Of a stretch of 19,002 nucleotides of DNA, positions 924 through 19,002 are shown one piece after another. Below the pieces are notes generated by a model. That model had not been told where the DNA came from. It saw nothing but the letters and a program-made list of their open reading frames with translations, and made no database searches. The stretch is from Candidatus Heimdallarchaeota archaeon (GTDB lineage Archaea; Asgardarchaeota; Wukongarchaeia; Wukongarchaeales; JBHIFL01), in the NCBI GenBank assembly GCA_046761065.1, contig JBHIFL010000076.1:1-19002 (forward strand). Reading direction: 5' to 3'. The translations under genes were made by a program, and so were the position numbers. Every line of letters starts with the position of its first letter. Position 1 is the first letter of the stretch.

Positions 924-1180
924 AGTTTGTCCTACAAATGGAATATAATTAAAATTTGATTCTCTAAACCTACCAATGAAAACAAATCAATATAAATCCA
1001 GCCTTCTGATAACGATCAAGGATCAAATAAGAGCAGCCTCTGAAGAGAGGAATTATCACACTCACAATGCTATCGTGTTTGGGTGAATACCGGGTCACAA
1101 ACTTGAATTCATCAGACTTGCTGTAATAATAGTGTTTGATTGCATCTGAAATCCGATTGGTGAGTGGAGGAACGAAAAGC

Positions 1181-1900: not shown

Positions 1901-2028
1901 TTGAAATGTGGATCGTGATAGTTACTCTCCCATTGGGGGCTCCTTGACCATAGAAGATGCTGTGTCATATGATTTGCTCCAAAACCCCATTATTAAGGAA
2001 TTGAGAACTCTCTAAAGGGACGTAAAGA

Positions 2029-3156
2029 ATGATTAAAGTTGCCTATTATATCTCTGACTACGGTTGGGGACATGCAGCGAGAAGTATTTGTATTATTGAG
2101 AAACTCTTGGAATACGAGCCCGAGTTAAGGGTAATAGTTTGTACGAAACAGCCCATGCCATTCCTTGAAGCCGCGTTGTCAAACATAATAGACATGAGTT
2201 ATGAGCAGGAGCAAGTTTCCTTTCATCCAATTCAGAACGATGTCGGCTTTGTCAGTCATGAGATTACAGGTCAAGTTGATTTAGTTGCGACTTGTCACAA
2301 AGTAAACCCTTGGGTTTATTCATGGAATGATTACTTACGTAGTGAGTACAAATTCCTGAAACGTCAGAAAGTTGACATGATCATTTCAGACATCCCTCCT
2401 CAACCGTTTCTCCTCGCAGAAAAACTCAAGTGCCCAGGTATCGCGATAACTAACTTTAGTTGGGTAGATCAATACCCTAAACATCATTTCCCTCAAGCAC
2501 TCCTTGAACGTTTACGGGAGGCCTATGCAAAAGCGACGTTGGCTTTTGTCCTCCCATTTAATTTTGAGCTAGAGGTCTTTCGATCTAGGGTACAAACTCC
2601 ATTGGTCGCTCGTAACCCCACCCGGACCCCCACTGAACTACGCCAGGAGCTAGGCATCGAATCCCACCAATTTCTTGTGTATATAGGAGTGGGACTCAGC
2701 GTCTCTAACCCATTTGTATTCGAAACAGTGGCGGCAGTAGTTGCAGCTAGGAAGGACGAAATTGTCTTTTTGGCATCTGGGAAAATGACCGCATCGCAAG
2801 AAAATGTGTATAAAGTGCCGCTCGATGATCCAAATGGTCAAGATTTTATAGCCTGTAGTGATCTTGCGCTACTTAAACCCGCGTATAGTTCAGTTGCGGA
2901 AGCAATCCGTTCCAAGACGCCTATTCTATCCTATAATATAGCTCAATCACGCGAGGGGTATCTCATTGAACATCAAATAATTACATTAGGATTTGCTCAA
3001 GCCATTTCGAGACGCGAATTTAATACTGGAGAGTGGATAAAGAAAATAGACATACAAGACGATTTACGGAAAAACTATGCCCAAATTCCTCCAAGGTTTC
3101 AACACCAGGGAGAAACCTTCGTAGCAGCACAAATCCTTAAGTTATTAGAGAATTGA
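2029..3156 (+). CDS. GT-B fold glycosyltransferase-like protein (MurG/MJ1255-related; resembles the N-terminal GT-like domain of plant L-arabinokinase)
   Basis: N-terminal YYISDYGWGHAARS, VDMIISDIPPQPFLLA, ITNFSW, and the nucleotide-sugar-binding-like segment DFIACSDLALLKPAYSSVAEAI. Confidence 0.75.
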   Translation: MIKVAYYISDYGWGHAARSICIIEKLLEYEPELRVIVCTKQPMPFLEAALSNIIDMSYEQEQVSFHPIQNDVGFVSHEITGQVDLVATCHKVNPWVYSWNDYLRSEYKFLKRQKVDMIISDIPPQPFLLAEKLKCPGIAITNFSWVDQYPKHHFPQALLERLREAYAKATLAFVLPFNFELEVFRSRVQTPLVARNPTRTPTELRQELGIESHQFLVYIGVGLSVSNPFVFETVAAVVAARKDEIVFLASGKMTASQENVYKVPLDDPNGQDFIACSDLALLKPAYSSVAEAIRSKTPILSYNIAQSREGYLIEHQIITLGFAQAISRREFNTGEWIKKIDIQDDLRKNYAQIPPRFQHQGETFVAAQILKLLEN

Positions 3157-3233
3157 ACGGTCTTTACGGACTTCTTTGGGTCTTCAGCGGATTTTTTAAG
3201 CCCCGAATTGTCTGTTTATGGGTAAAATTGCTT

Positions 3234-3953
3234 CTAGAAGTGAAATAATACTGTTATCTCACCTTTTCCTACCCATTCCGCGAGGTTGCGTGTCACCAGC
3301 CGTCTCAAAATCTCCTGGAGCTCCTCTTGGGGGAGGGAACTCCAAATCTCGCAAGCATTGGCCAGTTCAAAGAGGGAAACTAACTCTCGTCCCGTTTGAA
3401 GTGCCCATTCATAGATGATTTCGCTCCATTCTTCTAGCACTTTCCAGTATATTCGAAGGCGAGTTTTTCTTTCATCCCACCACGCCCCAAAATCCCGGTC
3501 GATAAGGTTCTGCCCAACTAGTTGCATCTGGTCCATACTCAGCTTCTTCTTGATTAGACGATTGGAAAACGGAAACTCCTTTCGGATCTCGAGCAGATTC
3601 AGAATATGGGCTGCTTTGAATTCTGCAAATTCGAGCAAGAAATCCCCCCAAGCAGAACCCCAACTCTGGAGCTGAGCTTGATCTGTTGGAGTCACATACA
3701 TCCATGGCTTTTCCACCCAACTGGGGAGGATGTCTTGCAGCCTTGCGACTTTTAGGGCTTTCTTTTCTACCTCGACTGGTCTCAATTCGATTTTAAGACG
3801 CTCAAGGTCTCTTTCTAGTGCCGTGAGTTGTGTATCTATAACAGGTTCCGTCTTTCCACGGTCCTGCATTTCAGATACAGAACCATTGTTTGCATGTATT
3901 TTCGGCTCATGCTTTTTCTCTTTTTCTGGCTGCTTCCGTCCTTTTACTGTCAT
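3234..3953 (-). CDS. vps25: ESCRT-II subunit Vps25 with N-terminal charged/coiled-coil extension
   Basis: PSWVEKPWMYVTP (PPxY-like Vps22/36-binding segment), QLQSWGSAWGDFLLEF, PFSNRLIKKKLS, AWWDERKTRLRIYWKVLEEWSEIIYEW, SLFEL match Vps25. GAGGGGG ribosome-binding site upstream of ATG 3953. Confidence 0.92.
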   Translation of the reverse strand: MTVKGRKQPEKEKKHEPKIHANNGSVSEMQDRGKTEPVIDTQLTALERDLERLKIELRPVEVEKKALKVARLQDILPSWVEKPWMYVTPTDQAQLQSWGSAWGDFLLEFAEFKAAHILNLLEIRKEFPFSNRLIKKKLSMDQMQLVGQNLIDRDFGAWWDERKTRLRIYWKVLEEWSEIIYEWALQTGRELVSLFELANACEIWSSLPQEELQEILRRLVTRNLAEWVGKGEITVLFHF

Positions 3954-3975
3954 GAGACCCCCCTCGGTTGATAAT

Positions 3976-5136
3976 TCATTCCACGGCGAATTGTTTTTGC
4001 CAGTCTTCGTAGGAAATTAGTTCTTGCGGACTTACACTAGGCTTGATCCTTTGGAGTGAGGTTAAAAAATCCTGCTTTGTGACTGGCCTGACTTTTGAAG
4101 TTGCATCTTTAAGGAGATCACTCTCATCAAGTTCTCGTAAGGGTACCATGATCGCTTCTCGACAAATTAATGCAATATCAGCACCTGAAAAGCCTACAGT
4201 CCATTCGGCTAATTGATCAAAATCTACAGAGTCATTTATTTCGACTCCTTTTGTGTGAATTCGAAAGACCGCTGCCCTCGCCTCTTTTTCCGGTAGCGGC
4301 ACGTAGACGCGCTTCTCAAAGCGACGACGCATGGCAATATCTAACTGCTGAGGCAAGTTTGTCGCACCAATAATTACTAACCGATCCGTTTTTTTGCTGA
4401 GAATTCCATCAACCGCTTGCATCAGTTGTGTCTTCACACGCCGCACCGAATCATGTTCGTTTGTTCCTCTTGCTCCTGTCAGCGCATCTACTTCGTCGAA
4501 AAACACAATAGAGGGTTGTTTCTCACGAGCCTGATCAAAGAGGGTCTTGACAAGCCTTTCGGACTCCCCCAACCATTTACTCATGATGGAGGCCGCACTA
4601 ACATTGAAAAATGTGGCTTCACATTCGCTTGCCACTGCTTTCGCCAATAAGGTCTTCCCACAGCCAGGAGGCCCAAAGAGTAAGATCCCCTTCCAAGGGG
4701 TCCTAGCTCCTTGGAAAAGGTCAGGACGCATTATGGGCCAGATAATCGCTTCCCTCAACGCTTGTTTTGCTGTCTGAAGGTTTGCAACATCTTCCCACTT
4801 GATTTCAGGTTTCTCGGTGATAATCGTGTCTGCAATCGCTTGTTCTAATCCCCCAACTTCCTCGTCTTCTTCCCCCTTCGCTTCACCTCGTCCGCGAGAA
4901 ACTGTACGTGTTGGACGCTTTTGCAGGTCTTTGACCCGGGAGATATATTCCTTGGCCTTATTGTAATACATCTGTTTCAAATCAGGGTTGTCTGTGAAGT
5001 TGATCATCTTCTGTAGGATTTCAATAGCTCGTACATAATGGATAATGGCCTCTTTACGTTTCCCTGCCCGATCAGCTTGGACTGCTCGGCGGGCATATAT
5101 ACTTACGTACTCATAGAGTTTCCCTGTAGAACTCAT
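3976..5136 (-). CDS. vps4: Vps4 AAA+ ATPase with N-terminal MIT domain
   Basis: MIT helices (ARRAVQADRAGKRKEAIIHYVRAIEIL...KAKEYISRVKDL), KPEIKWEDVANL..AKQALREAII.P, PWKGILLFGPPGCGKT (Walker A), SKWLGESERLVK, FFDEVD (Walker B), GATNLP..LD.AMRRRFEKR, and the Vps4_C tail KPSVSPQELISYEDW. Likely start ATG 5136 (track 5145 GTG). Probably co-transcribed with vps25 (22-bp gap). Confidence 0.95.
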   Translation of the reverse strand: MSSTGKLYEYVSIYARRAVQADRAGKRKEAIIHYVRAIEILQKMINFTDNPDLKQMYYNKAKEYISRVKDLQKRPTRTVSRGRGEAKGEEDEEVGGLEQAIADTIITEKPEIKWEDVANLQTAKQALREAIIWPIMRPDLFQGARTPWKGILLFGPPGCGKTLLAKAVASECEATFFNVSAASIMSKWLGESERLVKTLFDQAREKQPSIVFFDEVDALTGARGTNEHDSVRRVKTQLMQAVDGILSKKTDRLVIIGATNLPQQLDIAMRRRFEKRVYVPLPEKEARAAVFRIHTKGVEINDSVDFDQLAEWTVGFSGADIALICREAIMVPLRELDESDLLKDATSKVRPVTKQDFLTSLQRIKPSVSPQELISYEDWQKQFAVE

Positions 5137-5343
5137 GCACCGCACCTACTCTAGTTGTTCCAGTTTAGCTAAAAAAACATTTGCTAAGGATGCCCGATCA
5201 ACCAGTTTGACGACCGAATAGGACAACATGAGCCCATAATCACTACTTACTTAGGCGAATTCTGTAGATCAGAAGATTCGATCTTTGAAATGCTCTCTCA
5301 TTATATCCAAGACGCATGAAATGCTTCTGTATGAACAATTGGG

Positions 5344-5350
5344 TTTATAA
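5344..5350 (+). promoter_or_regulatory. Candidate archaeal TATA box in the divergent vps4 / ESCRT-III intergenic region
   Basis: TTTATAA about 110 nt upstream of the ESCRT-III ATG at 5459, which has a strong AGGAGG ribosome-binding site. Short motif only. Confidence 0.35.
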
Positions 5351-5458
5351 GTTACATCATCCCTCTACTTCTTGATGAATTAATTGTGGTTTATGGGAGT
5401 CTACGAGTTTGAGATTAATAGATTCTTTGATGCCATTAATTTAAGGAGGTCTCTCTAG

Positions 5459-6067
5459 ATGGCATTTGGAAAATTCTTGGATTGGCTCAGAGGTGGACGA
5501 AGCCCACGTCAAATGATTGTTCGATTAAAAATGATTAGCCGCCGAATGGATCGCCAACACCGCAAGTTACGGAATAATGAAACGAAACTAAAGAATGAAC
5601 TGCGCCAGTCTGTAACAAAAGGCGATATGGAAGCGGCTAGACTATATGCGGGGGATGTGGTCCGATCCCGGAAGATGGCCTTAGGGTGTCAACGCTTGAG
5701 TTCACGAATTAACACAATTGTCTTCAAACTCGAGCAAGCCCAAGCCACTGAAGAGATTGCTCGGGACCTCCACAGTTTGGTTGGCGCCTTAGTTATGATT
5801 AATCAAACCCTTCAGATCCCCCAACTCACTGAAACCCTCGAACAGATGGAAATTGAGATGGGGGAAATCGATGTATCATCAGAAACAATTGGAGAGTCCT
5901 TTGAAGGCTTAATGGAAGCCGAGGTGGAACAAAGCGAAATTGACAAAGTTCTGGGGGAGGTCTTGACCGAGGAAGAGATTGCTGCGGCACATGGCCTCCC
6001 AACCCCGGATGTGAAAGCCACAGAGATCGCGAAAGAATTGGAAAAGCTGAAGAAAGGGGAGGATTAG
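5459..6067 (+). CDS. ESCRT-III subunit, Vps2/Vps24/Vps46 (CHMP1-like) class
   Basis: N-terminal amphipathic helix MAFGKFLDWLRG; basic hairpin with KGDMEAARLYAGDVVRSRK...RLSSRINTIVFKL (CHMP1/Did2-like); acidic C-terminal half; terminal MIM1-like helix EIAKELEKLKK. Confidence 0.92.
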   Translation: MAFGKFLDWLRGGRSPRQMIVRLKMISRRMDRQHRKLRNNETKLKNELRQSVTKGDMEAARLYAGDVVRSRKMALGCQRLSSRINTIVFKLEQAQATEEIARDLHSLVGALVMINQTLQIPQLTETLEQMEIEMGEIDVSSETIGESFEGLMEAEVEQSEIDKVLGEVLTEEEIAAAHGLPTPDVKATEIAKELEKLKKGED

Positions 6068-6091
6068 CAGGGCGAAAAGGAGGGCATAACA

Positions 6092-8758
6092 GTGGAGGCG
6101 TCTCATTTGGAACTGGGCCGCCCCCTCACTGATGGAGTCAGAGCCGCTCTTTCAGTAGTCAAGCGGACCCAGCCTAAAACACCATTAGAATTCTTGGATT
6201 TTGCAGTCCTTCAGCGGATGCTAGCTGAGATCTTACAGGATCCAGCTTGGAAGCAAGAAGCTGTCGCCTCTTTAGAAAAGGTTCTTCCCTCTCAAAAAGA
6301 AGATGGGGCCTTCATATATTCAGACCAAGTCCCCCATGAGGAGATGACCCTCCAAGCTGTCGAACGTCTTATGTTACTCTCAAGGTTTGAGGAACTCGTT
6401 AAAGAACCTATACAGAAGGCATTGCATTTCCTTGCCTCCTCGGCGGATAACCGTCTTTCCAAGCTTGCAAAGGCATATTTAGCACTCCTTGACCAAGAAT
6501 CCCCCTACTCACCACTCAAAGAGGCAATTCAGGGATTGAAAAGAGAAGAAGCCGTCAACGTTCTGACAATCCTTCATGTTGCTTCGAAGGATCCCGCCTA
6601 CTTAACTGAAGCACGCACTCTTCTTAATGGAACCAAAGAGGACACCCAATCCCTCCTTGAGATTCTCGTTTGGAAAAATTCTGGATATTCTGTCGACTTC
6701 TACCCCAAAGAATTATCAACCCGAATGAGACTTGCCCGCTCTTTAGCTTTAGACGCCCCTCCCTTTGAATTGGCAGGGGTGTTGGGCTATGTCATGGGAG
6801 AACAACACCGGGGGTTCGCTGCAAGTGTTACCTCCGCCCTTGGTGATTTTTCACCTTTTATTGATGAGAAAATCGATCCAACTCATTCGATCACAGGAGA
6901 TTCCATTGTCCTAGGCGCCCGAGGAGCAGTCCACCGAGAAGTTGATGGGCTGCTCTACTTAGGGCGAGTAACGGAACATGCCCCCGAAGAGGATAAATTT
7001 GGCTACGCCATTCAAGTGGACGCGACCTTTCCTCATGTGATCTTGATCGCCGGCATGCGCGGGAGTGGGAAATCATACACGCTCGGGGTTCTTGCTGAGG
7101 AACTGGCCCGAACAGATATTGGGATCGGCGTCATCATTGTGGATCCTCTCGGGGTTTTCTGGAGTATGAAACTCCCCAATTCAGACGCTGGGGAACGGAA
7201 ACTTATCGAAAAATGGCACCTTGTTCCAAAAGGCCATCCCGAGAAGGTCAGAGTCTTCATCCCCCTTGGTTATTATGACGATTACCCCGAAGAGAGCAAA
7301 GACGCCCCCTTTGCTATCGCCCCTACCGAATTAGAAGCTGGCGATTGGGCGTTCATGTTTAAAATTGATTTACAATCCCCCATGGGGTTGTTACTCCGGC
7401 AAGCTGTCGAACGGGTGCAGAAAGGGTATCAATCCGCCCGAGAAGGGACGACCATCCTGGTCCCAGGAAAAGGTGAAAAGTACACGATCCGGGACCTGAT
7501 CGAATGCATCTCAACCGATGTCGATCTGATCTCCAAGGAGCGGGGCTTTGCAAAAGCGACTCGCCGGGCCCTGGTTTCCCGGTTTATGCAGGTCCAGTCT
7601 TGGGGCCTGTTCAGCAGTGACCAAGCTACCCCCATCCATGAACTCTCCAAGCCAGGCCAGGTCTCCGTCATCGACGTTTCCTTCCTCTCCACGGTCGAGC
7701 CCGGCAGCGTTGCTTTAGTTGTGGGCCTCCTTGCCCGCCGGATCCTGCAAGAGCGCATTCGCATTGGACGTGCCGAAGAATCGGCTTACCTAACTGGAAC
7801 AACCCCGGTGGTGGACGCTTCCGCTCCTCCGATCCCTATCACCTGGGTGATGGTCGATGAAGCCCACATGCTGGTCCCAGAGGGAGAAAGGACCGCAGCT
7901 TCACAGCCGTTGATCGAGTTCGCGAAGCAGGGCCGAAAACCCGGCTGTGGGTTGATCCTAGCAACCCAGCGACCAGCTGCAACGAGTGACCAGGTGCTTT
8001 CGCAAGTGGATCTGGTCTTGTGCCATGCCCTCGTCTTAGAGGACGACCTCCGTGCGCTGTTGAAGCGGACGCCAGCGAAGTTACCCCAAGAGTTCAAGTC
8101 ACCAGATTTCATTCGAACGCTACCCGTCGGTGCGGCAATCGTTGCGGATCAAAGGACCCCGCTCAGGAGTCTGGTGGCACGAACGCGCCCGAGAACAAGT
8201 TCCCATGCAGGGAAAGCGGCGATCCCAAGTAAAATAATGCGAGCGGCGCCGGTTCCTGCCGTAGAACCCGTGCTAATTGAACAAAAACAGTGGGAGGAAA
8301 AAAAGGAGATACCAATGGACACGACTGCAGAATCGGTAGAAGTCCAGCCCTCTACTTTGACGGAGGCTCCCTCTATCGAACCTGAACTGATGGCAGGTTT
8401 GCCACCTACAACAGTGCTTCCTCCCGCAGTAATCCAAGGGTATCTTTCACGCAAACTCCTGTATGGATTTAAGGACTTCTTCTTTCCCCCTTCACGAGCT
8501 CACCGAACCACTGAGACGGGATTTATCGCCTTAGAAAAAGATCAGTGGCAGGCAGTTCAAGATGTTATTCGCAGTGAAGGGTGGGGCCTCAAATCCTCCA
8601 TGGAGCAGGAGGACATTGCGATTCAGTTATGGGAAACACTTAGAGGCAGATTGGGATTTGCGACAATCCAATCAGATGGAAGAGTTCAAGCGGTTTGGGC
8701 ATATGTCGGGACAGACTCTGCAGAGATTGCATTCCTCGAAGAATATAACAACCCCTGA
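6092..8758 (+). CDS. HerA/FtsK-superfamily (DUF87-type) P-loop ATPase, 888 aa, with N- and C-terminal accessory domains
   Basis: PHVILIAGMRGSGKSYTLGVLAEE (Walker A, 7052-7075), IIVDPLG, WVMVDEAH (Walker B), QGRKPGCGLILATQRPA (Arg finger and Q motif), DQVLSQ, RTLPVGAAIV. 24-bp gap from the upstream ESCRT-III gene; GGAGG upstream of the GTG start. Confidence 0.88.
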   Translation: MEASHLELGRPLTDGVRAALSVVKRTQPKTPLEFLDFAVLQRMLAEILQDPAWKQEAVASLEKVLPSQKEDGAFIYSDQVPHEEMTLQAVERLMLLSRFEELVKEPIQKALHFLASSADNRLSKLAKAYLALLDQESPYSPLKEAIQGLKREEAVNVLTILHVASKDPAYLTEARTLLNGTKEDTQSLLEILVWKNSGYSVDFYPKELSTRMRLARSLALDAPPFELAGVLGYVMGEQHRGFAASVTSALGDFSPFIDEKIDPTHSITGDSIVLGARGAVHREVDGLLYLGRVTEHAPEEDKFGYAIQVDATFPHVILIAGMRGSGKSYTLGVLAEELARTDIGIGVIIVDPLGVFWSMKLPNSDAGERKLIEKWHLVPKGHPEKVRVFIPLGYYDDYPEESKDAPFAIAPTELEAGDWAFMFKIDLQSPMGLLLRQAVERVQKGYQSAREGTTILVPGKGEKYTIRDLIECISTDVDLISKERGFAKATRRALVSRFMQVQSWGLFSSDQATPIHELSKPGQVSVIDVSFLSTVEPGSVALVVGLLARRILQERIRIGRAEESAYLTGTTPVVDASAPPIPITWVMVDEAHMLVPEGERTAASQPLIEFAKQGRKPGCGLILATQRPAATSDQVLSQVDLVLCHALVLEDDLRALLKRTPAKLPQEFKSPDFIRTLPVGAAIVADQRTPLRSLVARTRPRTSSHAGKAAIPSKIMRAAPVPAVEPVLIEQKQWEEKKEIPMDTTAESVEVQPSTLTEAPSIEPELMAGLPPTTVLPPAVIQGYLSRKLLYGFKDFFFPPSRAHRTTETGFIALEKDQWQAVQDVIRSEGWGLKSSMEQEDIAIQLWETLRGRLGFATIQSDGRVQAVWAYVGTDSAEIAFLEEYNNP

Positions 8759-8847
8759 GGGCGACTATAGCAGCTTCTTTGACCGACTTCAAAGGAAAGC
8801 CTAAAAAACGTTAAAAGGCAATTTACAAAAAAAAGGATGTAGCAATA

Positions 8848-9555
8848 TTGGGAATTAAAGGCTGGCTCTTTGGTGACAAGAAACGGAAACCGGCTGAAAC
8901 CGTTGCCGCCTTACGGGGCGTTATAAATCGATACATCATCCGTAGTAGAGCCCTTAGACGGCAAGCTGACGAACAAAGAGGCTTAGCACGCGATATGCTG
9001 CGAGATAGGAACAAAGTCGCCGCGAAACAGGCGCTACTCCGACGAACCCTCTATATGCGGGATTTAAATAATATCTATAACAAGACAATGAATATCCAGC
9101 GAGTGATTGATGCCATTCGGAGTGCTCAAGACAATATTGTGATGGCTGACGCCTTGAAAAGCGCCGATGAGGTAATACGAGTCTCCCTCAAGGATGCGGC
9201 GCCTGAGCGAATAGAAGAAATCATGCTGAGTGTAGAAGATAGCATCGAGCAAGTGGGCTACACTGATGAAATCTTAAGCGATACAACCATGAGCGAAGCT
9301 GGGTTGGAAGCTGACGAATTAACATCGCTAGATACGCAATTAGAAGAGTTGGAAGCGGAACTCCTATTGGAGGAGAAAGAGAAACTACCGACTCCTGCTG
9401 TCCGGGCATCACCTGTTCGAGCGGCAACAAAGGCGGCGAAGCCAACAGGTGTGGAAGAGCGAGGAGTACCTGAAGAAGAGGAAGAGATTAGCGAAGATGA
9501 ATTGAAACGCGAGATCGAAGAGATCAAGAAGGCTTTAGGGGAAAAAACCGATTAA
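8848..9555 (+). CDS. ESCRT-III subunit, Snf7/Vps20/Vps32/Vps60 class
   Basis: MGIKGWLFG membrane-anchor-like N-terminus, RNKVAAKQALLRRTLY (Snf7 'NK..AL.ALKRK..Y'), AIRSAQDNIVMADALK, ERIEEIM, LDTQLEELEAE, then LPTPAV (MIM2-like) and a terminal helix ELKREIEEIKKAL. TTG start; possible own TATA (TTAAAA 8811-8816). Confidence 0.92.
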   Translation: MGIKGWLFGDKKRKPAETVAALRGVINRYIIRSRALRRQADEQRGLARDMLRDRNKVAAKQALLRRTLYMRDLNNIYNKTMNIQRVIDAIRSAQDNIVMADALKSADEVIRVSLKDAAPERIEEIMLSVEDSIEQVGYTDEILSDTTMSEAGLEADELTSLDTQLEELEAELLLEEKEKLPTPAVRASPVRAATKAAKPTGVEERGVPEEEEEISEDELKREIEEIKKALGEKTD

Positions 9556-11003
9556 ATACCTCCAAACAGTTTTTCGAGCCCTGAACTAGGAGTTAATCGC
9601 TGCGGGGTGTTCTTGTTTAAGCTATTCAACTCCCCTTGGAGACGATCAAGGTCGGAAATAAGGCCCAACATGATTCGGGTATACTTTTCTGCAGGGATAT
9701 AGCCCCTGTCGAAGTTTTCATTAATGCCATGAAGAGTTCGCCATAACACGGAGATCTCTTTTTCGAGATCGTCTATGTGTTTTTTAGAGAAATATTCCGG
9801 TTTTGATTCATCTAGAATTTCCTTGTTACTTTTTAAGATGTCAAGCCAAAGATTTGATAAGCGTTCCCTATATATTTTAATCTCATTTTTTATTGAGGAC
9901 ATCTCAACTTGTGCAATCGGGATCTTCCCTGCGCTCCAAGAGCGTGCCATATCTAAAAAGACGAGCAGCTCATCTATGGCTTCTTTTTTACCTTGAATTT
10001 CACTTGTTCCCAGTGTTGTGGTAATAATCAGACGTAGATTTCTCTTTTTTTTCTTTTGGGATACCTGTAACACTTGGTTAAGGTGTAAATTCTTTACATG
10101 TTTGACTTTATGAAGCCTCCCCTTTTTCGTGATAAACGCAAGGCGAGTAGTGGTCAAACAGAGCGCGCCAACCCCATTATTTTTGCTACCATCTCCAGCA
10201 ATAAAATTAGAGACAGTTACTCGGGGTAAAACGATAATAGGGTACTCGAACGGATCCAAGGGAAAAATATCGTGAAGTTGGTCGAAGTAGTTGCGAAAAC
10301 GTTCAATTTTCTTGACTAATTGGGTCAAGTGATCCAAACTTTCATGTTCGGCATGTAGTCGCTCAGTTACCTTGGCTGAAACAATTTCAAGTTCCTTTTC
10401 TAGGGAAACAAGCCGTTGCATTTTTTTCCCGACCTTATTAAGAGACCGAAAAGGAGACCCAATGAGTTGAGAAGCCACAGCTTTTAGTTTATCGGCTAAG
10501 AGGGCAACTTGGCTAAAAACAAATCGCCCCTCTTCCGGTAGTACTTCATAAATGGCATCCATCTTTTCCTCCAATATAGCATAGTGATAATAGTTAGCTC
10601 GCCGTAGTTTCTCAATGCGTGTTCGGAGGTGTTCCCAATTAGCACAAAGCTTTACAAATTGGATTCCGATCCCTTTAAAAACTTTCAAGATTTCTAAAAA
10701 ACGAGAAACAACCTCCTTTTTCACTTGAGAAATGTTTTGAACTTCAACACTACAAGTGGGACAACGTCGCTGGATTTTTAAGCCCCTCCCAATCTTTTCA
10801 CTATTACATATCATACAGGATAACTTCCCCTTTCTCCCTTGGGAGATTTTAAAAGACCCGCATGCCTGGCAGACTGTTAACTCCCGCCTAATAGTTTCTA
10901 CACATTGAAAACATAGTGTTAAACCACATTTTACACAAACAAGGGTTACTCCTTCGGCACCACACAACGCGCAATACAAAATTTCGCCCATATCACCAGC
11001 CAA
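9552..11003 (-). CDS. Multidomain protein: six CxxC Zn-binding pairs (B-box-like plus Zn ribbons), coiled coil, PH/GRAM-like domain, C-terminal helical hairpin resembling the ESCRT-I core
   Basis: CALC, CVKC, CFQC, CQAC, CMIC and CPTC pairs; long heptad-rich helices; GALCLTTTRLAF...LHLNQVLQV...LRLII (PH-like); TLHGINENFDRGYIPAEKYTRIMLGL near the C-terminus. Start is TTG 11003 or ATG 10991. Its stop overlaps the Snf7-class stop (TTAA 9552-9555). Confidence 0.7.
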   Translation of the reverse strand: MAGDMGEILYCALCGAEGVTLVCVKCGLTLCFQCVETIRRELTVCQACGSFKISQGRKGKLSCMICNSEKIGRGLKIQRRCPTCSVEVQNISQVKKEVVSRFLEILKVFKGIGIQFVKLCANWEHLRTRIEKLRRANYYHYAILEEKMDAIYEVLPEEGRFVFSQVALLADKLKAVASQLIGSPFRSLNKVGKKMQRLVSLEKELEIVSAKVTERLHAEHESLDHLTQLVKKIERFRNYFDQLHDIFPLDPFEYPIIVLPRVTVSNFIAGDGSKNNGVGALCLTTTRLAFITKKGRLHKVKHVKNLHLNQVLQVSQKKKKRNLRLIITTTLGTSEIQGKKEAIDELLVFLDMARSWSAGKIPIAQVEMSSIKNEIKIYRERLSNLWLDILKSNKEILDESKPEYFSKKHIDDLEKEISVLWRTLHGINENFDRGYIPAEKYTRIMLGLISDLDRLQGELNSLNKNTPQRLTPSSGLEKLFGGI

Positions 11004-11230
11004 GCATAGTCCCCCATTTCACAAAGTGAGATCTAAGTGGGCTAAACAAGAAGAAAAAGGGATGTGTTATATGGATATATTTTTGAATCCTAGAAGGGGA
11101 ATGGGTGTCTTATGGGGTTTTGGAGAAGAAATGTGCCATGAAGCACTATTTCTAGCATTATCCAGGTTAGTCAACGACTTGAGGGTTTGCTTACATATTA
11201 AGCTATGGTTCTGAAAAAAAATAACCTCGT

Positions 11231-12262
11231 TTATGAGGTTCTATGTTGATACCATATAATGGTCTTTAGCAAACCTTGGTCGAGAATTGTTGTCGGTTCC
11301 CATTTGAGCAGAGTTCTAGCTTTGGTGATATCAGGGCATCTTCTCTTTGGGTCGTCTATCGGGAGTGGGTGGAACTCAATTGGAGAGCTGGAGTTGGTAA
11401 GTTTTTTGATTTTCTCGGCAAGATCAATGATATGGGTTTCCGCATCATTACCGAGGTTGATCACCTCATGTTTCGCTTCCGGCATAGACACTGCTTTGAG
11501 AATGCCTTCGACTTCGTCTGTTACATAAGTGAAGGAACGCGTTTGAGTGCCGTCGCCAAAGACAGTGATTGGCATATTTGAAAGCGCCTGTTCAATAAAA
11601 TTTGGAACCACTCGGCCATAAATATCCCCGGCTCGCATCCTAGGACCATAAGTATTGAAGATTCGGACAATTCGACTGTCTATTCCATGTTGAATCTGAT
11701 ACGCGATTACGAAGGCTTCCCCTGCTCGTTTCGCCTCATCATAACAAGACCGGGGCCCGACCGGATTAACATTCCCGTAGTAGCTCTCTTTTGTAGGTAT
11801 TCGCTTTAGGTCGGGATCTCCGTAGATTTCACTACTTGAAGTATACAGAAACCGAGCGTGGTGTTTGCGGGCAATTCCAAGGGCGATCCAGATTCCCAGA
11901 GTGTTGGATTTTAAAATTTGAATGGGGAATTTGGCAAACTCGAATGGGCTAGCCCGGCTCGCCAAGTGTAGGATGATATGAATTGGTTCATCGAGAAATA
12001 ACGGTTCAGAAATATCGTGATTAATATATTCGAAGGTTTCAGATGGGATAAGGTGAGTGATATTAGACTGAAGCCCGGAAGCTAAATTATCCACGCAAAG
12101 AACCCTGGCATTCTGGGTGACCAGGACATCACAGATCCAGGAACCTAGGAAGCCAGCACCTCCAGTGACAAGAACCGTCTGATCTTCGAAGGAGATTGCA
12201 TTATTATTAAGCCGCTGGAGGATTTGCTCCACACCATCATGGATAGGATCCTTTTCTTTCAT
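11231..12262 (-). CDS. UDP-glucuronate decarboxylase (UDP-xylose synthase) family SDR
   Basis: VTGGAGFLGS, HLASRASP, SSSEIYGDP, Y.GNVNPVGPRSCYDEAKR, RIFNTYGPRM, GDGTQTRSF.YV.D, LPIDDPKRRCPDITKA. Confidence 0.92.
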   Translation of the reverse strand: MKEKDPIHDGVEQILQRLNNNAISFEDQTVLVTGGAGFLGSWICDVLVTQNARVLCVDNLASGLQSNITHLIPSETFEYINHDISEPLFLDEPIHIILHLASRASPFEFAKFPIQILKSNTLGIWIALGIARKHHARFLYTSSSEIYGDPDLKRIPTKESYYGNVNPVGPRSCYDEAKRAGEAFVIAYQIQHGIDSRIVRIFNTYGPRMRAGDIYGRVVPNFIEQALSNMPITVFGDGTQTRSFTYVTDEVEGILKAVSMPEAKHEVINLGNDAETHIIDLAEKIKKLTNSSSPIEFHPLPIDDPKRRCPDITKARTLLKWEPTTILDQGLLKTIIWYQHRTS

Positions 12263-12387
12263 GATATATCTATCCTAGACATTTTTACGGCATTCAGGGC
12301 TTTGGCTCAAACTGATCTTGTCTAAAACCTCTTGCTTTCAGGAAATCTTTTTCCGTCTATTTCTGTTTTTCGAGAATGCCCTCCCAA

Positions 12388-13617
12388 TTAGGACGAAATA
12401 TGATGATCGACAAGTTTTTCAACAATTTGTTGGAAAGAGACCTCCTTCTGCCAACCAAGTACTTTTTCGGCTAATTCGGTATTACTGCAATACCATCGTG
12501 GATCAGCTTGGCGTGGGATATCCGTACGATAAGTTACGGGGCGTCCCGTTATTTCTTCCAAAATGGTAAAGAGGTCAAGGATGGATGCTGCGTTTTCAGG
12601 GCCTCCACCAATATTGAAAGCCTTTCCTGCGACAATGTCGGGCTCTGTGGCTTGTTTGTTCATTATTATTCTAATCATCTTAAGCACATCCCAGCCATGT
12701 ACTGGATCTCGTACCTGTTTCCCGTCCCCAAAGACGGTTACTTGATTGCCTTGACACACTTGTTTCGTTAAAAAGTCGACCCAACCATGCGCTAAGATGG
12801 AATATTGGTCAAAATACATCTGACCCGTCATAGTGGTTGGTCTGATCTCGGTGGTTATGAGATTATAGCTGTTGTTCAAATCAAGGGTCAGGAGCCCCTC
12901 AAAGGTCTTGTGAACTCCATATTGCTGGCACGTATCCAGTCGAAAGTACTCTGAGACGCCATGATCTCGCAGCCAGGGGATGGTAGGGACCCATTGGGTA
13001 TCTGTTTCTATCAGCTCAACACGTCTTACGGGTGGATCTTCGGAAGCACCTGGATTATACCAAATTGAACCGGGAATTGCTCGGGGATCCACCCACAAGG
13101 AATCTTCGATCATCCCATAAACTTTGTTCGTGGTCATGGCAATGAGTTTCGGTACATTCTCGCTCAATGCGGCCTCTTTTATGGCCTCAACTTGATGTTC
13201 CAGAGGCAATTCCGTATGACGGACGCCAGCTTTCTCGATTAAATAGTCTACAAGAATTCGGGCCAAAACAGCCGCCGAATAGGCATTGTTCATAAAATCT
13301 GGATAAGGAAATCGCATAGAGATTATGGCAGAGGCCGCAGCACTGGTGTGTACAATATATTTTATGACTCCGTTACGAGGGTGTAAGAGTATCTGGCTTG
13401 TCTCGTAGTGATTCAGGTCAGCTAGATTGATCTGAAGGCGAGGGTTCTGGAGTGCTATCAATTCGCGGTAACGTTGGTCACTGTATTCTTTGAATAAATT
13501 GTCACACCCATGGATCTGAAAGGTTTCATACTCTTCGCACTCCAACAGATATCGAGCCAAATTACTCCCGATATAGCCACAAATTCCGGTGATGAAGATA
13601 ATTTCATCTTTCTCCAT
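12388..13617 (-). CDS. NAD-dependent epimerase/dehydratase, CDP-paratose/tyvelose 2-epimerase (RfbE)-like, with insertions
   Basis: ITGICGYIGS, TTNKVYG, YGVHK (YxxxK), GWVDF, GDGKQVRDPVH, AFNIGGGPENAASI, RQADPRWY. Confidence 0.8.
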   Translation of the reverse strand: MEKDEIIFITGICGYIGSNLARYLLECEEYETFQIHGCDNLFKEYSDQRYRELIALQNPRLQINLADLNHYETSQILLHPRNGVIKYIVHTSAAASAIISMRFPYPDFMNNAYSAAVLARILVDYLIEKAGVRHTELPLEHQVEAIKEAALSENVPKLIAMTTNKVYGMIEDSLWVDPRAIPGSIWYNPGASEDPPVRRVELIETDTQWVPTIPWLRDHGVSEYFRLDTCQQYGVHKTFEGLLTLDLNNSYNLITTEIRPTTMTGQMYFDQYSILAHGWVDFLTKQVCQGNQVTVFGDGKQVRDPVHGWDVLKMIRIIMNKQATEPDIVAGKAFNIGGGPENAASILDLFTILEEITGRPVTYRTDIPRQADPRWYCSNTELAEKVLGWQKEVSFQQIVEKLVDHHISS

Positions 13618-13733
13618 TTATTACAACCAACCTTTTTTAGCAACGAATCTATCAAGAGTTGAACGATTTTGGGCTCGGTTCAGTGACTGAATTGAATGTG
13701 ATCATGCGCCCATTATTGGATCTCCCTAAAACA

Positions 13734-14255
13734 TCATAATCGAGGTTGGGATTTCAACATAATTTCAGTTAAAATCTCAAATAGCTCGCTCACATTCTCG
13801 CCCGTCTTAGCTGACGTCTCAATATATTTGAGCCCATTGCTAGCCGCATATGTTGTCGCTTCTCCAATAGAGACAGAGCGATCTGCTTCGAGATCAAGCT
13901 TGTTTCCAACAATTATGTAAGGAATTGCCCCACAATTGATATAAACTTCATTGTACCAATAGTCGAGTTTTTCGAAAGAACTCCTCTGAGTTATGTCAAA
14001 GACGATAAACGCCCCATTTGCTTTGCGGTAATAAAGTGGACGGAGTGGTCCAAAACTCTCCTGCCCCGCGGTATCATATAACAGCAGCTTAACATTGATC
14101 TTGTCGATTCGGACATTTTTCACAAAAAAATCTACACCTAAGGTCGGAATATAAGTTTCCGAGAACTGACCCACAGCGAAGCGCCGGATCAATGAGGTTT
14201 TCCCGACAGCTTCCTTCCCTAAGGAAATGGTCTTGAACTCATATTCATGGGTCAT
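13734..14255 (-). CDS. Rab-like Ras-superfamily small GTPase
   Basis: G1 GKEAVGKT, G2 YIPTLGVDF, G3 LYDTAGQE, YYRKANGAFIVFDIT..SF, G4 GNKLDL, G5 ETSAKTGENV. No C-terminal Cys prenylation motif. Likely start ATG 14255 (track 14264). Confidence 0.95.
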   Translation of the reverse strand: MTHEYEFKTISLGKEAVGKTSLIRRFAVGQFSETYIPTLGVDFFVKNVRIDKINVKLLLYDTAGQESFGPLRPLYYRKANGAFIVFDITQRSSFEKLDYWYNEVYINCGAIPYIIVGNKLDLEADRSVSIGEATTYAASNGLKYIETSAKTGENVSELFEILTEIMLKSQPRL

Positions 14256-15030
14256 TCCAATCACAGGACCTTATCTAAAGAAGGGTTCGTTTTTCGATTC
14301 AAAGGTTTTTCTCGGCTTATTATCTGAAATAAGTTGCCACATACACTTCGATCTTAAACGTTTTTTTACATTTTGCTGTTTTCTCTCAAAAAAAGTTTCT
14401 TCATAAAAGCTTAAATGTCTTTATTTGCTAAAAATCCCAATTAAAAATGGAGATTCGAGTTATAACAAAAGTACACAAGTTGTTTTTTGCGTATTCCGTC
14501 TATACCCTTCAAGAATGATCATCCAATATGTCATTCTCTAAAATATACAAGACTTTACCTCAAAGAGTTCTTAGGATCACCATTCTGGCAACCACATTGT
14601 TCTTTCATATTAGGAACTGCTATTAGAGAGAATTCTCACCTACTTCAACTTTTACTTAAGATTTGTTTCGCAATATTTTTTAAAATTTTTCTACGCTTCA
14701 ACTACTTCTTAGATCGAGTGCTGATAACTTCCTTTTCAAGGACCGTTTTCAAACATACTAATAATAGCTCTATCCTCCACATCGTTGAGTCAAATAATAT
14801 TGCCATTACATACACTTCAAAATAATTTATCCTAAACAAGGAATCTCCTTTCTTTTTCCCACAGCATCCCTCCCTCTATTTCTAGTAAAACGGTTTACTA
14901 TCTTTATTTAGTTATCTTCAGGTCATTAGTCTCAAAAAAATCTTTTTCTCCGATTTTTTCGTTTGTCTCAGCACTTTTTCCCTCCTCACCACTTTGGTCA
15001 ATAACGAATTGTTTATTTTGAATGAAAACC

Positions 15031-15072
15031 GTTCACCCCTTGGTTCTAGCACCAACCAGAGGGAAGGTGAAC
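15031..15072. promoter_or_regulatory. Extended imperfect hairpin upstream of EF-2
   Basis: GTTCACC/GGTGAAC, CCT/AGG and TGGTT/AACCA stacked stems. It is followed by TATA-like TTTAATA at 15089-15095 and 15129-15135. Confidence 0.45.
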
Positions 15073-15159
15073 AAGAACTTCCTTAGTCTTTAATATGTAT
15101 AGGCGAGAACCGAGCGTTAAGATAGAAGTTTAATAAAAAAATCGTATGAGGAATAACCG

Positions 15160-17631
15160 TTGGCAATTGCAAAAGTAGTACCTAAAGTACTTAAGTTAAT
15201 GCGACAAAAAGAGCAGATCCGCAACATTGGGGTCATTGCACATATTGATCATGGAAAGACGACTCTGACCGATTCGCTTCTAGCGGCCGCAGGGGTTCTT
15301 AGTAGTAAAATCGCCGGTGAAGCCCGGATGATGGATCTCCGTGAGGATGAACAAGAACGTGGGATCACAATCAAGACCACTGGTATCTCCCTCTATCATG
15401 AACTCGAAGGAGAATCCTATATCATCAACCTACAAGACACACCCGGACTTTAACGGACATGTGGAAGTCTGTTAAACGGACATGTGGACTTTAGTGGGGA
15501 GGTGACTTCCGCTCTGCGGGTGGTTGATGGAGCCCTTGTCGTTGTCGATGCTGTTGAAGGAGTGATGGTTCAAACCGAGATCGTGACCCGACAGTCGCTT
15601 GAGGAACGCGTCAGACCGGTTCTTTTTATCAACAAGATTGACCGTTTGATCACGGAAATGCGGATGACCCCGGAAGAGGCTTACGCCCAGCTAACTACTA
15701 TCATACGCGATTTTAACCTGCTTTTAGAGACCTACGCGCCTCCGGAGTTTAAAGAAAAGTGGAAAGTTGACCCCGTAATGGGGTCTGTTGCCTTTGGGAG
15801 TGCAAAACACCGGTGGGGCTTTACCATCCCTTCACTTGCCCGTGCCTATGCGAAAAAAGAAGGGAAAGACGCTCAAGCCCTTGCCAAACCGATGTGGCGA
15901 AAAAGTAACTTTGTAAAACTGATGCTAAAACCCCTCTACCAGATCTATCAGTCCTCAGAACAAGGAGAGAAAGATTTTCTGGAGAAAGCCCTTGATGTGA
16001 TCGGGGTCGAATTGATGGAGGAGGAGTGGCTTTTAGCTCCAAAAGACCTCGCAAAAACCATTTTGGAACGATGGTTGCCCGTTGCTAATGCAATTCTCGA
16101 CATGATTATTAAGTTCGTACCCAGCCCTCAGAAAGCCCAGTCCTATCGAGTTTTCGCCGCATGGCCAGGCAATAAAGAGAACCCAGTGGGCAAAGCGTTG
16201 GCCACCGCAGATGAAAACGGTCCAGTGATGATATCAATCAGTAAAATGATTCCCATGCGAGCGAAACGAATCGTAGCAATGGGACGCATTTTTTCTGGGA
16301 CTATTAAATCGGGACAGCGAATACATGTCCTCCTCCCCGGCTATTATTCAGGTCGAAAAGATCGAATGTTCACTACCAATATCCAACAAGTCAGCATTTT
16401 GATGGGGAAAGAAACTCATAAAGTTGACGCTGTTCCCGCAGGAAATATTGTGGCTTTGTATGGGATCCGAGGGGCGTTTTCAGGCTCAACTGTGACTGAT
16501 CTTGAGGATGTCGAACCCTTTGAAGTCCTCCACTTTGCTGTTGAACCTGTCGTAACCATTAGTGTAGAGCCCCAAAACCCCACAGAACTTCCAAAGCTTG
16601 TTGAGGGTTTGAAGCTCATGGAACTGGTTGACGCCAGCCTTGACACCGTCATTAATGAGGAAACAGGAGAATACCTCATTTCAGGAACGGGCGAACTCCA
16701 CCTCGAAATCACTATTAAAGATCTGCAAGACCTCCAAAAACTCGAGGTTATGACCAGTAAACCCATTGTGGTGTTCCGCGAAAGTGTTGCAGGAAAAAGT
16801 GACCATCCTGTCCTCGCTAAGTCTCCAAACAAGCATAACCGTCTATGGCTCACTAGTGAACCGTTGGATCCCAAGTTGACTTTGGATCTTGAGAAAAAGC
16901 AAGTTCCACCGTATCTTGATGAGAAGGCCCGAGCTGCTCTCATGCGGGAAAAATACGGTTGGGATAGGGATTCGGCACGAGGCTTGTGGGCTTTTGGTCC
17001 TGAACATGATGATCCCAACGCCATAATAGATCGAACAAAAGGGATTCAGTATCTTCGGGAAATCAGGGATTACACCATTTCTGGTTTTAGATGGGCAGCG
17101 AAAGAGGGACCGCTCTGTGGAGAGCCGATGTATGGAGTACGCTTCAACCTTGTAGACTGCAAGCTCCATGAAGACGCTATTCACCGAGGCGTGGCGCAAA
17201 TTATGCCTGCAGCCCGCCGCAGCTGTTTTGGAGCCTTCCTCTACGCCAACCCGATCCTCCTTGAGCCGATTTACAAGGCCCAGATCCAAGCCCCAGAAGA
17301 TCAACTGGGTGCCATTTACAAAGTACTCACCAAACGTCGGGGGAAGATCCATGACACGCAGCGGCGTGAAGGAACCCCACTGGTCGTTGTCACCGGAGAA
17401 CTCCCCGTTGCCGAAAGCTTTGGATTAGTGGCTGAATTACGCTCAGAGACTTCCGGCACGGCTTTTTCTCAATTAACCTTTCAGAAGTGGGAGAAAATGC
17501 CCGGGGACGTCATGAAGCCAGTAGAAGAGGGGGGTAGCATCGCTAGACAAGCAGTCGAGGAGACTAGACGCCGTAAAGGGTACCATGACCCGCACCCACC
17601 GAAACCAACAGACTATGAAGATACTCTATGA
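15160..17631 (+). CDS. fusA: Translation elongation factor 2 (aEF-2), interrupted by a 33-nt in-frame insert with a TAA stop; 812 aa after removal of the insert
   Basis: [35 protein letters not shown]|[28 protein letters not shown], diphthamide loop [23 protein letters not shown]. The two track ORFs (15160-15453 and 15484-17631) are in the same frame. TTG start with GAGG upstream. Confidence 0.95.
15448..15481 (+). other. 33-nt intervening sequence in EF-2 (candidate BHB mRNA intron or translational bypass element)
   Basis: CCC GGA [CTT TAA CGG ACA TGT GGA AGT CTG TTA AAC GGA] CAT GTG GAC. Bounded by the direct repeat CGGAC, so the boundaries can slide. 10-bp hairpin 15449-15458 / 15467-15476 with one G-U pair. 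Confidence 0.75.
15452..15488 (+). repeat. 14-nt direct repeat AACGGACATGTGGA x2 (period 23 nt)
   Basis: Copies at 15452-15465 and 15475-15488. Confidence 0.95.
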
Positions 17632-17863
17632 CGTCTTTAACTTGGTCGGCGAGAAATCTCCCTGCGGAACAGTACTTCGTAAAGCTTTTTTTAGACCTAA
17701 CAAAATGAGATAAGAAATCAGACCGACAAAAAGAGGTGAGAGTGGATTTGAGCTATAACTCGATCAGATCCAAGAGAGAACGATCTAAGTTACGCTCCAA
17801 TCTGGACCTATTCAATCATTCCACCTATAAAAAGCTTCGTGCCCAATGGTACAAAAAAATCAT

Positions 17864-18202
17864 CTAAATGAACTGGATTGCTTCCATACTCGCGATTTTA
17901 CCCCCGATCAGTTCCTCAAACCCATGGAATTCGCTTCTCGGACTAATACCTCCTTTAATGATGCAAGTATGACCTATTGGGCCAAATAAATTCCTTGCCC
18001 TTCGGAAGAGACTGGTTTGAAACAGTGGCGCGAGGAAGGCCTGGAGCTGATGGACATTCATCTCAATCATGCCCTCGAGGAGCAGTTCAATGCCCTCCCG
18101 GGGAAACTCTGACGCCAGTACCGGAAACACGACATAGTCCTTATTGATTTCCATACCGATCCCTATTCTTATATACTCCTAGATGAAACTACGACGTTTC
18201 AT
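17864..18202 (-). pseudogene. Probable degraded gene fragment, weakly reminiscent of an IS110-family transposase N-terminus
   Basis: ATG 18202 with GGAGG upstream is in frame with the 96-aa ORF but is interrupted by TAG at 18179-18181 (MKRRSFI*EYIRIGIGMEINKDYVVFPVL..EFPREGIELLLE). The resemblance to the GID.HKD-type motif is weak. Confidence 0.25.
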
Positions 18203-18342
18203 TTCCTCCAATCTCACCCTCCACAGACCCCCCACAAAGGAGGGCGCGGCGGAGTGAGGGAGGAAGATGCGGTTTTGTGATCTAAGTTGGCAATGAAAAA
18301 ATCACACAGCACGCCTATTTTAAGCTTTCGGCCCCCCAGAGA

Positions 18343-18412
18343 TAGTGTAGAGGTTTACACTAATTACTGTAGAGGTCTACACTAAAACGACTTAGTGTAG
18401 GGTCTACACTAA
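18343..18412. repeat. Three tandem palindromic boxes, consensus TAGTGTAG-n3/4-CTACACTA (operator- or iteron-like)
   Basis: TAGTGTAGAGGTTTACACTA 18343-18362, TACTGTAGAGGTCTACACTA 18365-18384, TAGTGTAGGGTCTACACTA 18393-18411, plus a half-site TAGTGTA at 18458-18464. Confidence 0.9.
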
Positions 18413-18429
18413 AATCCTTAATTACGAAG

Positions 18430-18440
18430 TTTATATTAAA
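18430..18440 (+). promoter_or_regulatory. Candidate TATA box downstream of the palindrome array
   Basis: TTTATATTAAA preceded by purine-rich CGAAG (BRE-like). Confidence 0.45.
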
Positions 18441-18590
18441 ATTACCTAGTTGGGTTTTAGTGTATTATAAACAATTAATTAAAAGATCTCGGAGCTGTAA
18501 ATCCACAGGAGATTTGCGATGCTGGTTTCTGATGAGTTTGACGATAGAGTATCGAAATTCCAATATGTTTTTAAATACTCCTTTTGACAA

Positions 18591-18929
18591 ATGATAAGAT
18601 ATCCGATGGGGAATGGAAGAATGAACACCTCTGATATAACAGGGAGTAATGAAACCCCGCCAACACCCCTCCAAGTAATATTCTTCGATACGATATCTGA
18701 GGTCCCATCCCTATACGATCCCGCCCTCCCTGAGAGAGAAATACTGTTCCTCGCACGAGACACCTTCAAAGAGTTAGAGGGCATTCGAAAACCTGATTTA
18801 GCGAAGACCGTCCGTAAGGCCTTGAGGCAGTATTGTGACAACCACCCGGGGATTATAAAGAAAATTTCAATGGGGACATTCGAAATTTATAGTCAAACTT
18901 TTTTTAAAAAGGGTCGTTCAGGTATTTGA
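18591..18929 (+). CDS. Hypothetical protein with a possible ribbon-helix-helix DNA-binding segment
   Basis: EILFLARDTFKELEGIRKPDLAKTVRKALRQY fits a strand-helix-helix RHH/CopG pattern by eye. Start uncertain. Confidence 0.45.
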   Translation: MIRYPMGNGRMNTSDITGSNETPPTPLQVIFFDTISEVPSLYDPALPEREILFLARDTFKELEGIRKPDLAKTVRKALRQYCDNHPGIIKKISMGTFEIYSQTFFKKGRSGI

Positions 18930-19002
18930 AGCCTTCGAGACTCCTCCTCTCTTTCTATTATTTTTTTATCTCAAGTCGGTCAGGAGTGAGAGGGCTGCCC
19001 GG

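Follow-up and report, generated by a model that had tools for sequence, protein, structure and literature searches.

The subject of this analysis is a stretch of 19,002 nucleotides (nt), which makes up contig JBHIFL010000076.1 (positions 1 to 19,002, forward strand) of the assembly GCA_046761065.1 from a Candidatus Heimdallarchaeota archaeon. We refer to the whole stretch as the window, to the genome as G000, and to the contigs of this genome by C numbers. The window carries the gene for the translation elongation factor EF-2 (aEF-2), and this gene is interrupted at its DTPG/H motif, where the stroke, here as in the motifs and sequences below, marks the point of interruption. Read in order, the gene encodes ...INLQDTPG (GAC ACA CCC GGA), continues with 33 in-frame nt that contain a TAA stop codon, and resumes with HVDFSGEV... 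(CAT GTG GAC TTT). Our data suggest that the insert is very probably an archaeal bulge-helix-bulge (BHB) intron in the EF-2 mRNA, spliced by the endonuclease EndA and the ligase RtcB. The parts of the gene are the following:

15160-15448, plus strand: EF-2 exon 1, with a TTG start, 96 codons and the first base of the His codon; its 3' end is CCC GGA C
15449-15481, plus strand: predicted intron of 33 nt, its register set by the BHB geometry; no copy in the three closest relatives
15451-15453, plus strand: in-frame TAA, at which translation of unspliced mRNA stops after 97 residues
15482-17631, plus strand: EF-2 exon 2, from AT GTG GAC ... to the stop codon

A direct repeat, CGGAC, flanks the insert with one copy at each end (15444-15448 and 15477-15481), and it permits six cut registers, all with the identical spliced product. 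Removal of the insert restores DTPGHVDF, including the His codon of DTPGH. When 15448 is joined to 15482, the result is a protein of 812 aa that aligns without gaps to that of the closest relative, P0001, with 755 of the 812 residues identical. The amino terminus encoded by exon 1 is MAIAKVV..., as in the 812-aa relatives P0001, P0002 and P0005, and exon 2 is covered over 100% of its length by Hodarchaeales-type EF-2 proteins of 810-812 aa.

The insert and selection on the gene

Four DNA sequencing runs from a single study, made on four hydrothermal-vent samples, were assembled separately, and their contigs match positions 15100-15900 with zero differences at a depth of 17-42. The closest public EF-2 genes (93, 89 and 81% protein identity, all encoding 812 aa) are uninterrupted, and when the DNA is aligned with that of three such relatives, the window is longer by exactly 33 nt. 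Contigs and alignment thus agree with the original prediction, made from the window alone, that a stop-containing insert of 33 nt splits EF-2 at DTPG/H. The contigs of all four runs carry the insert. Neither the protein nor the aEF-2 family model, when used as a query, picked up another EF-2 in the genome, which is 91% complete.

On the window's own branch (with P0002 as outgroup), 90 synonymous single-base changes stand against 9 non-synonymous ones, a pN/pS of 0.03 that is similar to the value of 0.044 for the intron-less sister branch. The insert is the only lesion in the gene. Because of the preponderance of synonymous changes and the single copy, the EF-2 gene of the window is not a pseudogene, but a single-copy gene under purifying selection. 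As an essential, single-copy and strongly constrained gene with an internal stop codon, it therefore needs the insert to be either removed or bypassed.

One rival explanation is a very recent null insertion, be it in a pseudogene or as a variant in a part of the population, or an error of the assembly. The absence of the insert from the closest relatives is in line with such an event, and so is its composition, since much of it repeats adjacent exon sequence, the kind of product expected from an error in replication. The common origin of all four runs in one study also leaves room for it. However, an artefact or variant is hard to square with four separate assemblies, well covered and free of variants, and a null insertion with an essential gene that has no second copy in the assembly, a pN/pS this low and no further lesion. 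Moreover, the exact geometry and cut register of the insert, described below, recur elsewhere in G000, in genes besides EF-2, as well as in further lineages. We consider an explanation of this kind highly improbable.

Downstream of EF-2, the last 1.4 kb of the window (17632-19002) are without a long open reading frame (ORF), and the gene order is broken there. In the three closest relatives (L051-L053), unlike in the window, EF-2 is followed by a gene for an aminotransferase that is encoded on the other strand.

Fold of the insert and same-genome controls

The insert and the adjoining exon ends can be folded into the following elements:

15438-15441, plus strand: 5' strand of the outer exon helix, CACA, which pairs with UGUG at 15483-15486 in the minimum-free-energy structure, with C15442 unpaired
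15443-15446, plus strand: exon strand of the central helix, CCGG, which pairs with 15476-15479
15447-15449, plus strand: 5' bulge AC/U, with the predicted cut 3' of C15448, by a rule that was checked on the tRNA-Met of the same genome
15450-15475, plus strand: intron stem-loop with 9 bp (15450-58 with 15467-75, one G.U) and a loop of 8 nt
15476-15479, plus strand: intron strand of the central helix, ACGG, with three Watson-Crick pairs and G15446.A15476
15480-15482, plus strand: 3' bulge AC/A, with the predicted cut 3' of C15481

The order of elements in the minimum-free-energy fold is helix, 3-nt bulge, 10-bp stem, helix, 3-nt bulge and helix. The hairpin, UUUAACGGAC/GUCUGUUAAA, is found both as an inverted repeat and in the fold, with 9-10 bp, one G.U pair and a loop of 8 nt, much as it had been described in the original prediction (10 bp, with the same G.U pair and loop). 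The BHB that had been drawn there (CACA with UGUG, CCGG with ACGG, bulges ACU and ACA) was reproduced by the fold and by explicit bookkeeping of the pairs, and the proposed cuts 3' of the second nt of each bulge do excise 15449-15481 and bring back the frame of the 812-aa product.

The two bulges measure 3 nt each and are spaced 4 positions apart. Six registers are compatible with the CGGAC repeat; the one that excises 15449-15481 and restores the frame is alone in having at least three of the four central-helix pairs, and the others were rejected, with two of four pairs at most. Of 200,000 shuffles of the 33 nt, 0.037% reached 3 or more central-helix pairs and, along with them, an intron stem of 6 bp or longer when read in the register that restores the frame. 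The geometry agrees with the relaxed BHB form, a type that is accepted by two-subunit EndA with an L1 loop. The Pro codon of the motif is CCC in the window versus CCA in the three closest intron-less relatives (CCC GGA C/AT versus CCA GGN CAY), and its third position, C15444, has G15478 as its partner within the central helix. Selection for splicing may have favored this synonymous change in the exon.

Rfam searches matched zero families, self-splicing introns included, in the window or around the insert.

The same genome offers a control in which the exon ends are fixed by the structure of the tRNA, namely the tRNA-Met gene (G000:C167:1190-1300, plus strand) with an intron at 37/38. Its central helix, CUCA with GGAG, consists of 3 Watson-Crick pairs and an A.G beside the 5' bulge, and the cuts fall 3' of the second bulge nt. 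The tRNA-Met intron and the EF-2 intron share one relaxed form. ARAGORN recognized only 17 tRNAs in the 4.4 Mb genome, 14 of them with introns. Most of these intron calls are unreliable, which suggests multi-intron tRNAs, and tRNA-Met alone was clean enough to serve as a control. The genome thus looks rich in introns, and the small number of tRNAs, mostly with introns, fits the heavily interrupted tRNA genes that have been described for some Asgard archaea (PMC11291895; bioRxiv 10.64898/2026.10.13.758758).

A protein-coding counterpart is present in the gene for uS5 (G000:C19:7214-7248, plus strand), where a 35-nt insert lies inside VQR/QTDAGR. Its central helix, GCAG with CUGU, is paired at all four positions, and its bulges are AG/A and AA/A.

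The genome also encodes the enzymes that splicing would require, with two EndA paralogues (in the regions C15:7589-7843, 105 bits, and C2:24654-24914, 66 bits) and RtcB (534 bits). The best matches of the alpha-like EndA among solved structures are crenarchaeal EndA chains. The second paralogue is more divergent and also matches NEQ261, a chain of the Nanoarchaeum EndA complex that we take to be a structural subunit. Asgard EndA is reported to belong to the two-subunit type with L1 loop, a type associated with a broad substrate range (PMC5829648).

Other predicted introns in Asgard EF-2 genes

Interruptions of EF-2 were sought in 400 genomes of the phylum and in two protein databases. The alignment of related Asgard genes at DTPG/H had been proposed as a check in the original prediction, and the search turned up variable inserts in several lineages. 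They are given here with length, position and central helix (exon strand first):

Window: 33 nt; C/AU, within the His codon; CCGG with ACGG
G027: 217 nt; position as in the window; CCGG with ACGG, the same helix with three of four pairs
G149 and a Helarchaeota metagenome-assembled genome: 31 and 32 nt; CAU/GUG; GGUC with GACU and GGUC with GACC
Jordarchaeaceae-type clade: 28, 30 and 31 nt; CAY/GUG; GGCC with GGCU
Genus g7 (three genomes): 29 nt; GUA G/AC; ACGU with GCGU

Taken together, no fewer than four lineages of introns occupy three positions that are confined to 7 nt. A single rule (a central helix of 4 positions, bulges of 3 nt, a cut after the second nt of each bulge) restores the frame and the conserved residues in every case. 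In the 28-32-nt inserts of four other Asgard groups, the central helices are paired at 4/4 positions, and the motif of G149 is fully canonical (outer stem of 4 bp, central helix of 4 bp, intron stem of 10 bp). The lengths of the inserts are mostly not multiples of 3, and those inserts must therefore be removed. For g7, the cut predicts CAC GUA G/AC UUC, which encodes HVDF, and the intron-less congener G138 has CAC GTA GAC TTT at this place. GACU of G149 and GACC of the Helarchaeota genome both pair with GGUC, a change that is compatible with compensation. The EF-2 frame is uninterrupted in the other five species of the genus of G027; the DNA of the 217-nt intron is single-copy in G027 and was not found in the two congeners that were searched directly.

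Some EF-2 breaks were rejected as introns. Those in G182 (L037) and G177 (L036) stem from chimeric joins or from joins at contig ends, that in L071 is due to 1-nt frameshifts, and several short N-terminal fragments have MWTS or TWTS after DTPG, a sign of indel errors.

In public records, the halves of intron-bearing EF-2 genes are annotated as separate proteins (P0077/L057 in GCA_038824995.1 and P0152/L069 in GCA_013375355.1), with lengths of 97-98 aa and 613-636 aa and with names such as "elongation factor EF-2" or "hypothetical protein". The eEF2/EFL1-like fragments P0190, P0224, P0225 and P0231, which look eukaryotic and have DSPG instead of DTPG, end right after this motif. These ends resemble what a spliceosomal intron a few bases from the Asgard BHB positions would produce, which may be a coincidence.

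Covariation comes from a second site in EF-2. In family f12, 13 of 19 genomes have an intron of 30-31 nt at RG/IT in switch I (loci L039:2789-2845, minus strand, L040:628-684, plus strand, and L058-L067, from G012, G032 and G121-G134). Across the 11 introns that were aligned, pairing is complete (100% of the cells) for the central helix as well as for the outer intron stem, and five pairs have changed on both sides, as in GGGG with CCCC versus GAGG with CCUC. None of 500 shuffles reached the observed score, and slid registers fall to 27-46% paired. RNAalifold, run without guidance, recovers the same core. The outer exon helix is weak and the motifs are relaxed (HBh'-like), which is expected because the exon strand also codes for protein. 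The covarying stems that had been hoped for are present in f12 and in the pair of G149 and Helarchaeota; the window intron has no homologue in close relatives with which it could be compared.

Proposed splicing, its alternatives and the origin of the introns

Together, these observations suggest a model for the expression of EF-2 in this archaeon. In the pre-mRNA, CCGG of the exon would pair with ACGG of the intron, so that the bulges ACU and ACA would come to lie on opposite strands, with the 9-bp intron hairpin stacked on the central helix. The two-subunit EndA would then cut after the second nt of each bulge, behind C15448 and C15481, and RtcB would ligate ...CCCGGAC to AUGUGGAC..., for a predicted junction that can also be written as CCCGGAC/ATGTGGAC. 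Ligation would produce the His codon of DTPGH and the EF-2 of 812 aa, whereas the unspliced mRNA would give rise to the 97-residue fragment only. An EndA-spliced BHB intron was the first of the two mechanisms offered in the original prediction, and it is well supported by the comparison of genomes and by the enzymes that are present.

Several points weigh against this reading. Cleavage and ligation in this cell are something that we infer from sequence. The four DNA runs share one study, which is possibly also the source of this assembly. The motif in the window departs from the canonical BHB, as its central helix has 3 Watson-Crick pairs and a G.A and its outer helix is offset by the unpaired C15442. 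As the window intron has no homologue in close relatives, the covariation is that of other introns. Finally, a scan of all of G000 for BHB geometry that joins two ORFs of at least 60 codons each recovers EF-2 (and misses uS5, which has only 5 contiguous stem pairs), yet the number of its matches is barely above that in frame-decoupled controls, with an excess in the strictest class alone (13 versus 4-8). Geometry alone is therefore weak evidence. The background of the scan is dominated by adjacent genes, which makes it unusable as a census.

Further candidates from the scan, each a short insert with a hairpin whose removal by the BHB rule would link two long ORFs, lie at C62 ~15111-15139 (minus strand), C83 ~12313-12344 (plus strand) and, in the window, ~9536-9577 (minus strand); many of the scan matches are adjacent genes.

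The insert might also be removed by machinery other than EndA and RtcB, or be kept, with the TAA read through and 11 residues added to switch II. The non-canonical central helix would be in keeping with the former and the in-frame length of 33 nt with the latter. As a general mechanism, however, read-through is contradicted by the sister inserts of 28, 29, 31, 32 and 217 nt, which shift the frame. Self-splicing has no Rfam match in its favor, and a length of 33 nt is well below what group I introns, group II introns or inteins require. We regard removal by other machinery, or read-through, as very unlikely.

The second mechanism of the original prediction was a hop of the ribosome. Translational bypassing is known from T4 gene 60 and from the mitochondrial "byp" elements, in which a short untranslated gap with a stop codon and a hairpin is skipped between matched GGA codons. 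In the case of EF-2, the peptidyl-tRNA-Gly would leave GGA at 15445-47, slide over 33 nt and land on GGA at 15478-80. The likeness extends to the stop codon, the hairpin, which starts 2 nt past the take-off codon, and the matched GGA codons on both flanks. However, the match between the codons follows automatically from the CGGAC repeat and is equally explained by the BHB. Unlike in gene 60, and as had been pointed out from the start, the stop codon is not adjacent to the take-off site: the sequence reads GGA CUU UAA, with the sense codon CUU directly after take-off. The 31-nt insert of G149 is without matched codons, and the uS5 insert without a matching landing codon. In g7, a GUA-to-GUA hop would yield HVNF, but the intron-less congener has HVDF, as predicted by the BHB cut. 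Moreover, the helices covary like those of an RNA processing substrate. The CUU codon, the G149 insert and the g7 sequence speak against the GGA-to-GGA hop, and we think that bypassing has next to no chance of being correct. A hop from CUU was tried as well and rejected, as the sole downstream CUU has UAG as its next codon.

If the insert is a spliced intron, as we think very probable, it looks like a recent, lineage-specific gain and not like a conserved regulatory device, because the nearest relatives are without it and the genome has other such introns. Autoregulation of EF-2 through the insert, which the original prediction had raised, has nothing in its favor, and the same absence from the nearest relatives argues against it.

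A trace of how the intron arose may be preserved within it:

15453-15465, plus strand: internal 13-nt copy, ACGGACATGTGGA, which repeats the 3' splice junction at 15476-15488 with a spacing of 23

The copy holds an intact exon junction, CGGAC/ATGTGGA, and one arm of the hairpin is an inverted copy of the other; direct and inverted copies of the exon junction account for most of the intron. The 13-nt copy would thus point to an origin by local duplication. The four types of intron at DTPGHVD (in the window and at L004, L005, L054 and L069) have the exon tetramers CCGG, GGCC, GGUC and ACGU, which are self-complementary or nearly so, and short direct repeats (CGGAC, CGGA, CGUA, CAU) flank most of these introns. 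It is conceivable, though on present evidence rather doubtful, that the DTPGHVD stretch of aEF-2 is a site of repeated birth or homing of BHB introns, where the duplication of a palindromic tetramer and bulge around a hairpin would create a splice-competent motif in one step. Speculatively, the tetramers and repeats suggest that the introns were either born when sequence around a palindromic tetramer was duplicated locally, or inserted time and again at one conserved site. The idea of a mobile element was rejected; searches of G000 revealed no second copy of the 33-nt intron, and the 217-nt intron is single-copy in G027.

BHB introns in mRNA have been described for the cbf5 pre-mRNA of Crenarchaeota (Watanabe 2002; Yoshinari 2006; Yokobori 2009, PMC2738675; references 22-24 of PMC5829648). 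Our search of the literature on BHB or EndA-type introns in archaeal protein genes returned cbf5 as the only mRNA case and exclusively tRNA cases for Asgard archaea, in agreement with the original prediction, which had called such introns rare and had named cbf5. Most likely, the EF-2 intron is a new member of this kind, of which crenarchaeal cbf5 has been the sole example. Both are short non-coding inserts in coding sequence with a BHB at the boundaries, served (in EF-2 by prediction) by a two-subunit EndA and a ligase, and patchy among relatives, which points to gain and loss. Unlike in cbf5, the host gene is EF-2, interrupted at the catalytic DTPG/H, the phylum is Asgard, the central helix is relaxed, splicing is a prediction from sequence, and independent introns of several lineages lie within 7 nt. 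With the Asgard tRNA introns, the EF-2 intron shares the predicted enzymes, a size range of ~15-60 nt, relaxed motifs and many apparently independent gains; the two publications cover tRNA genes only, and no protein-coding host was found in them, in PMC11291895 by a search for its passages on introns (PMC11291895; bioRxiv 10.64898/2026.10.13.758758). In contrast to the tRNA introns, the exon part of the EF-2 motif codes for protein, and splicing must compete with translation.

A more distant parallel is the unconventional splicing of HAC1 and XBP1 mRNA by Ire1 and tRNA ligase or RtcB, which is regulated by stress. There, too, a small intron leaves the mRNA without help from a spliceosome. An endonuclease that recognizes structure makes the cuts, a ligase of the tRNA type joins the ends, and the frame or the product is changed. 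The difference is that the endonuclease is Ire1, which recognizes twin stem-loops, whereas the EF-2 insert forms a BHB motif.

Split EF-2 genes that are annotated as short proteins, such as the 636-aa "elongation factor EF-2" of a Jordarchaeaceae genome, affect marker-gene phylogenies and estimates of completeness. Any census of interrupted genes must screen out 1-nt frameshifts and chimeric joins of the kind found at L071, L037 and L036.

If EF-2 is spliced as proposed, this Asgard cell would be unable to translate anything until it has spliced an mRNA, and the expression of both EF-2 and uS5 would hinge on the tRNA-splicing enzymes. This raises the question of how splicing stays ahead of coupled translation. 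The independent interruptions, together with presence and absence between close genomes, make the gain and loss of introns directly observable in the sister group of eukaryotes. Should the introns indeed arise by local duplication, mRNA introns would be born de novo in the archaea most closely related to eukaryotes.

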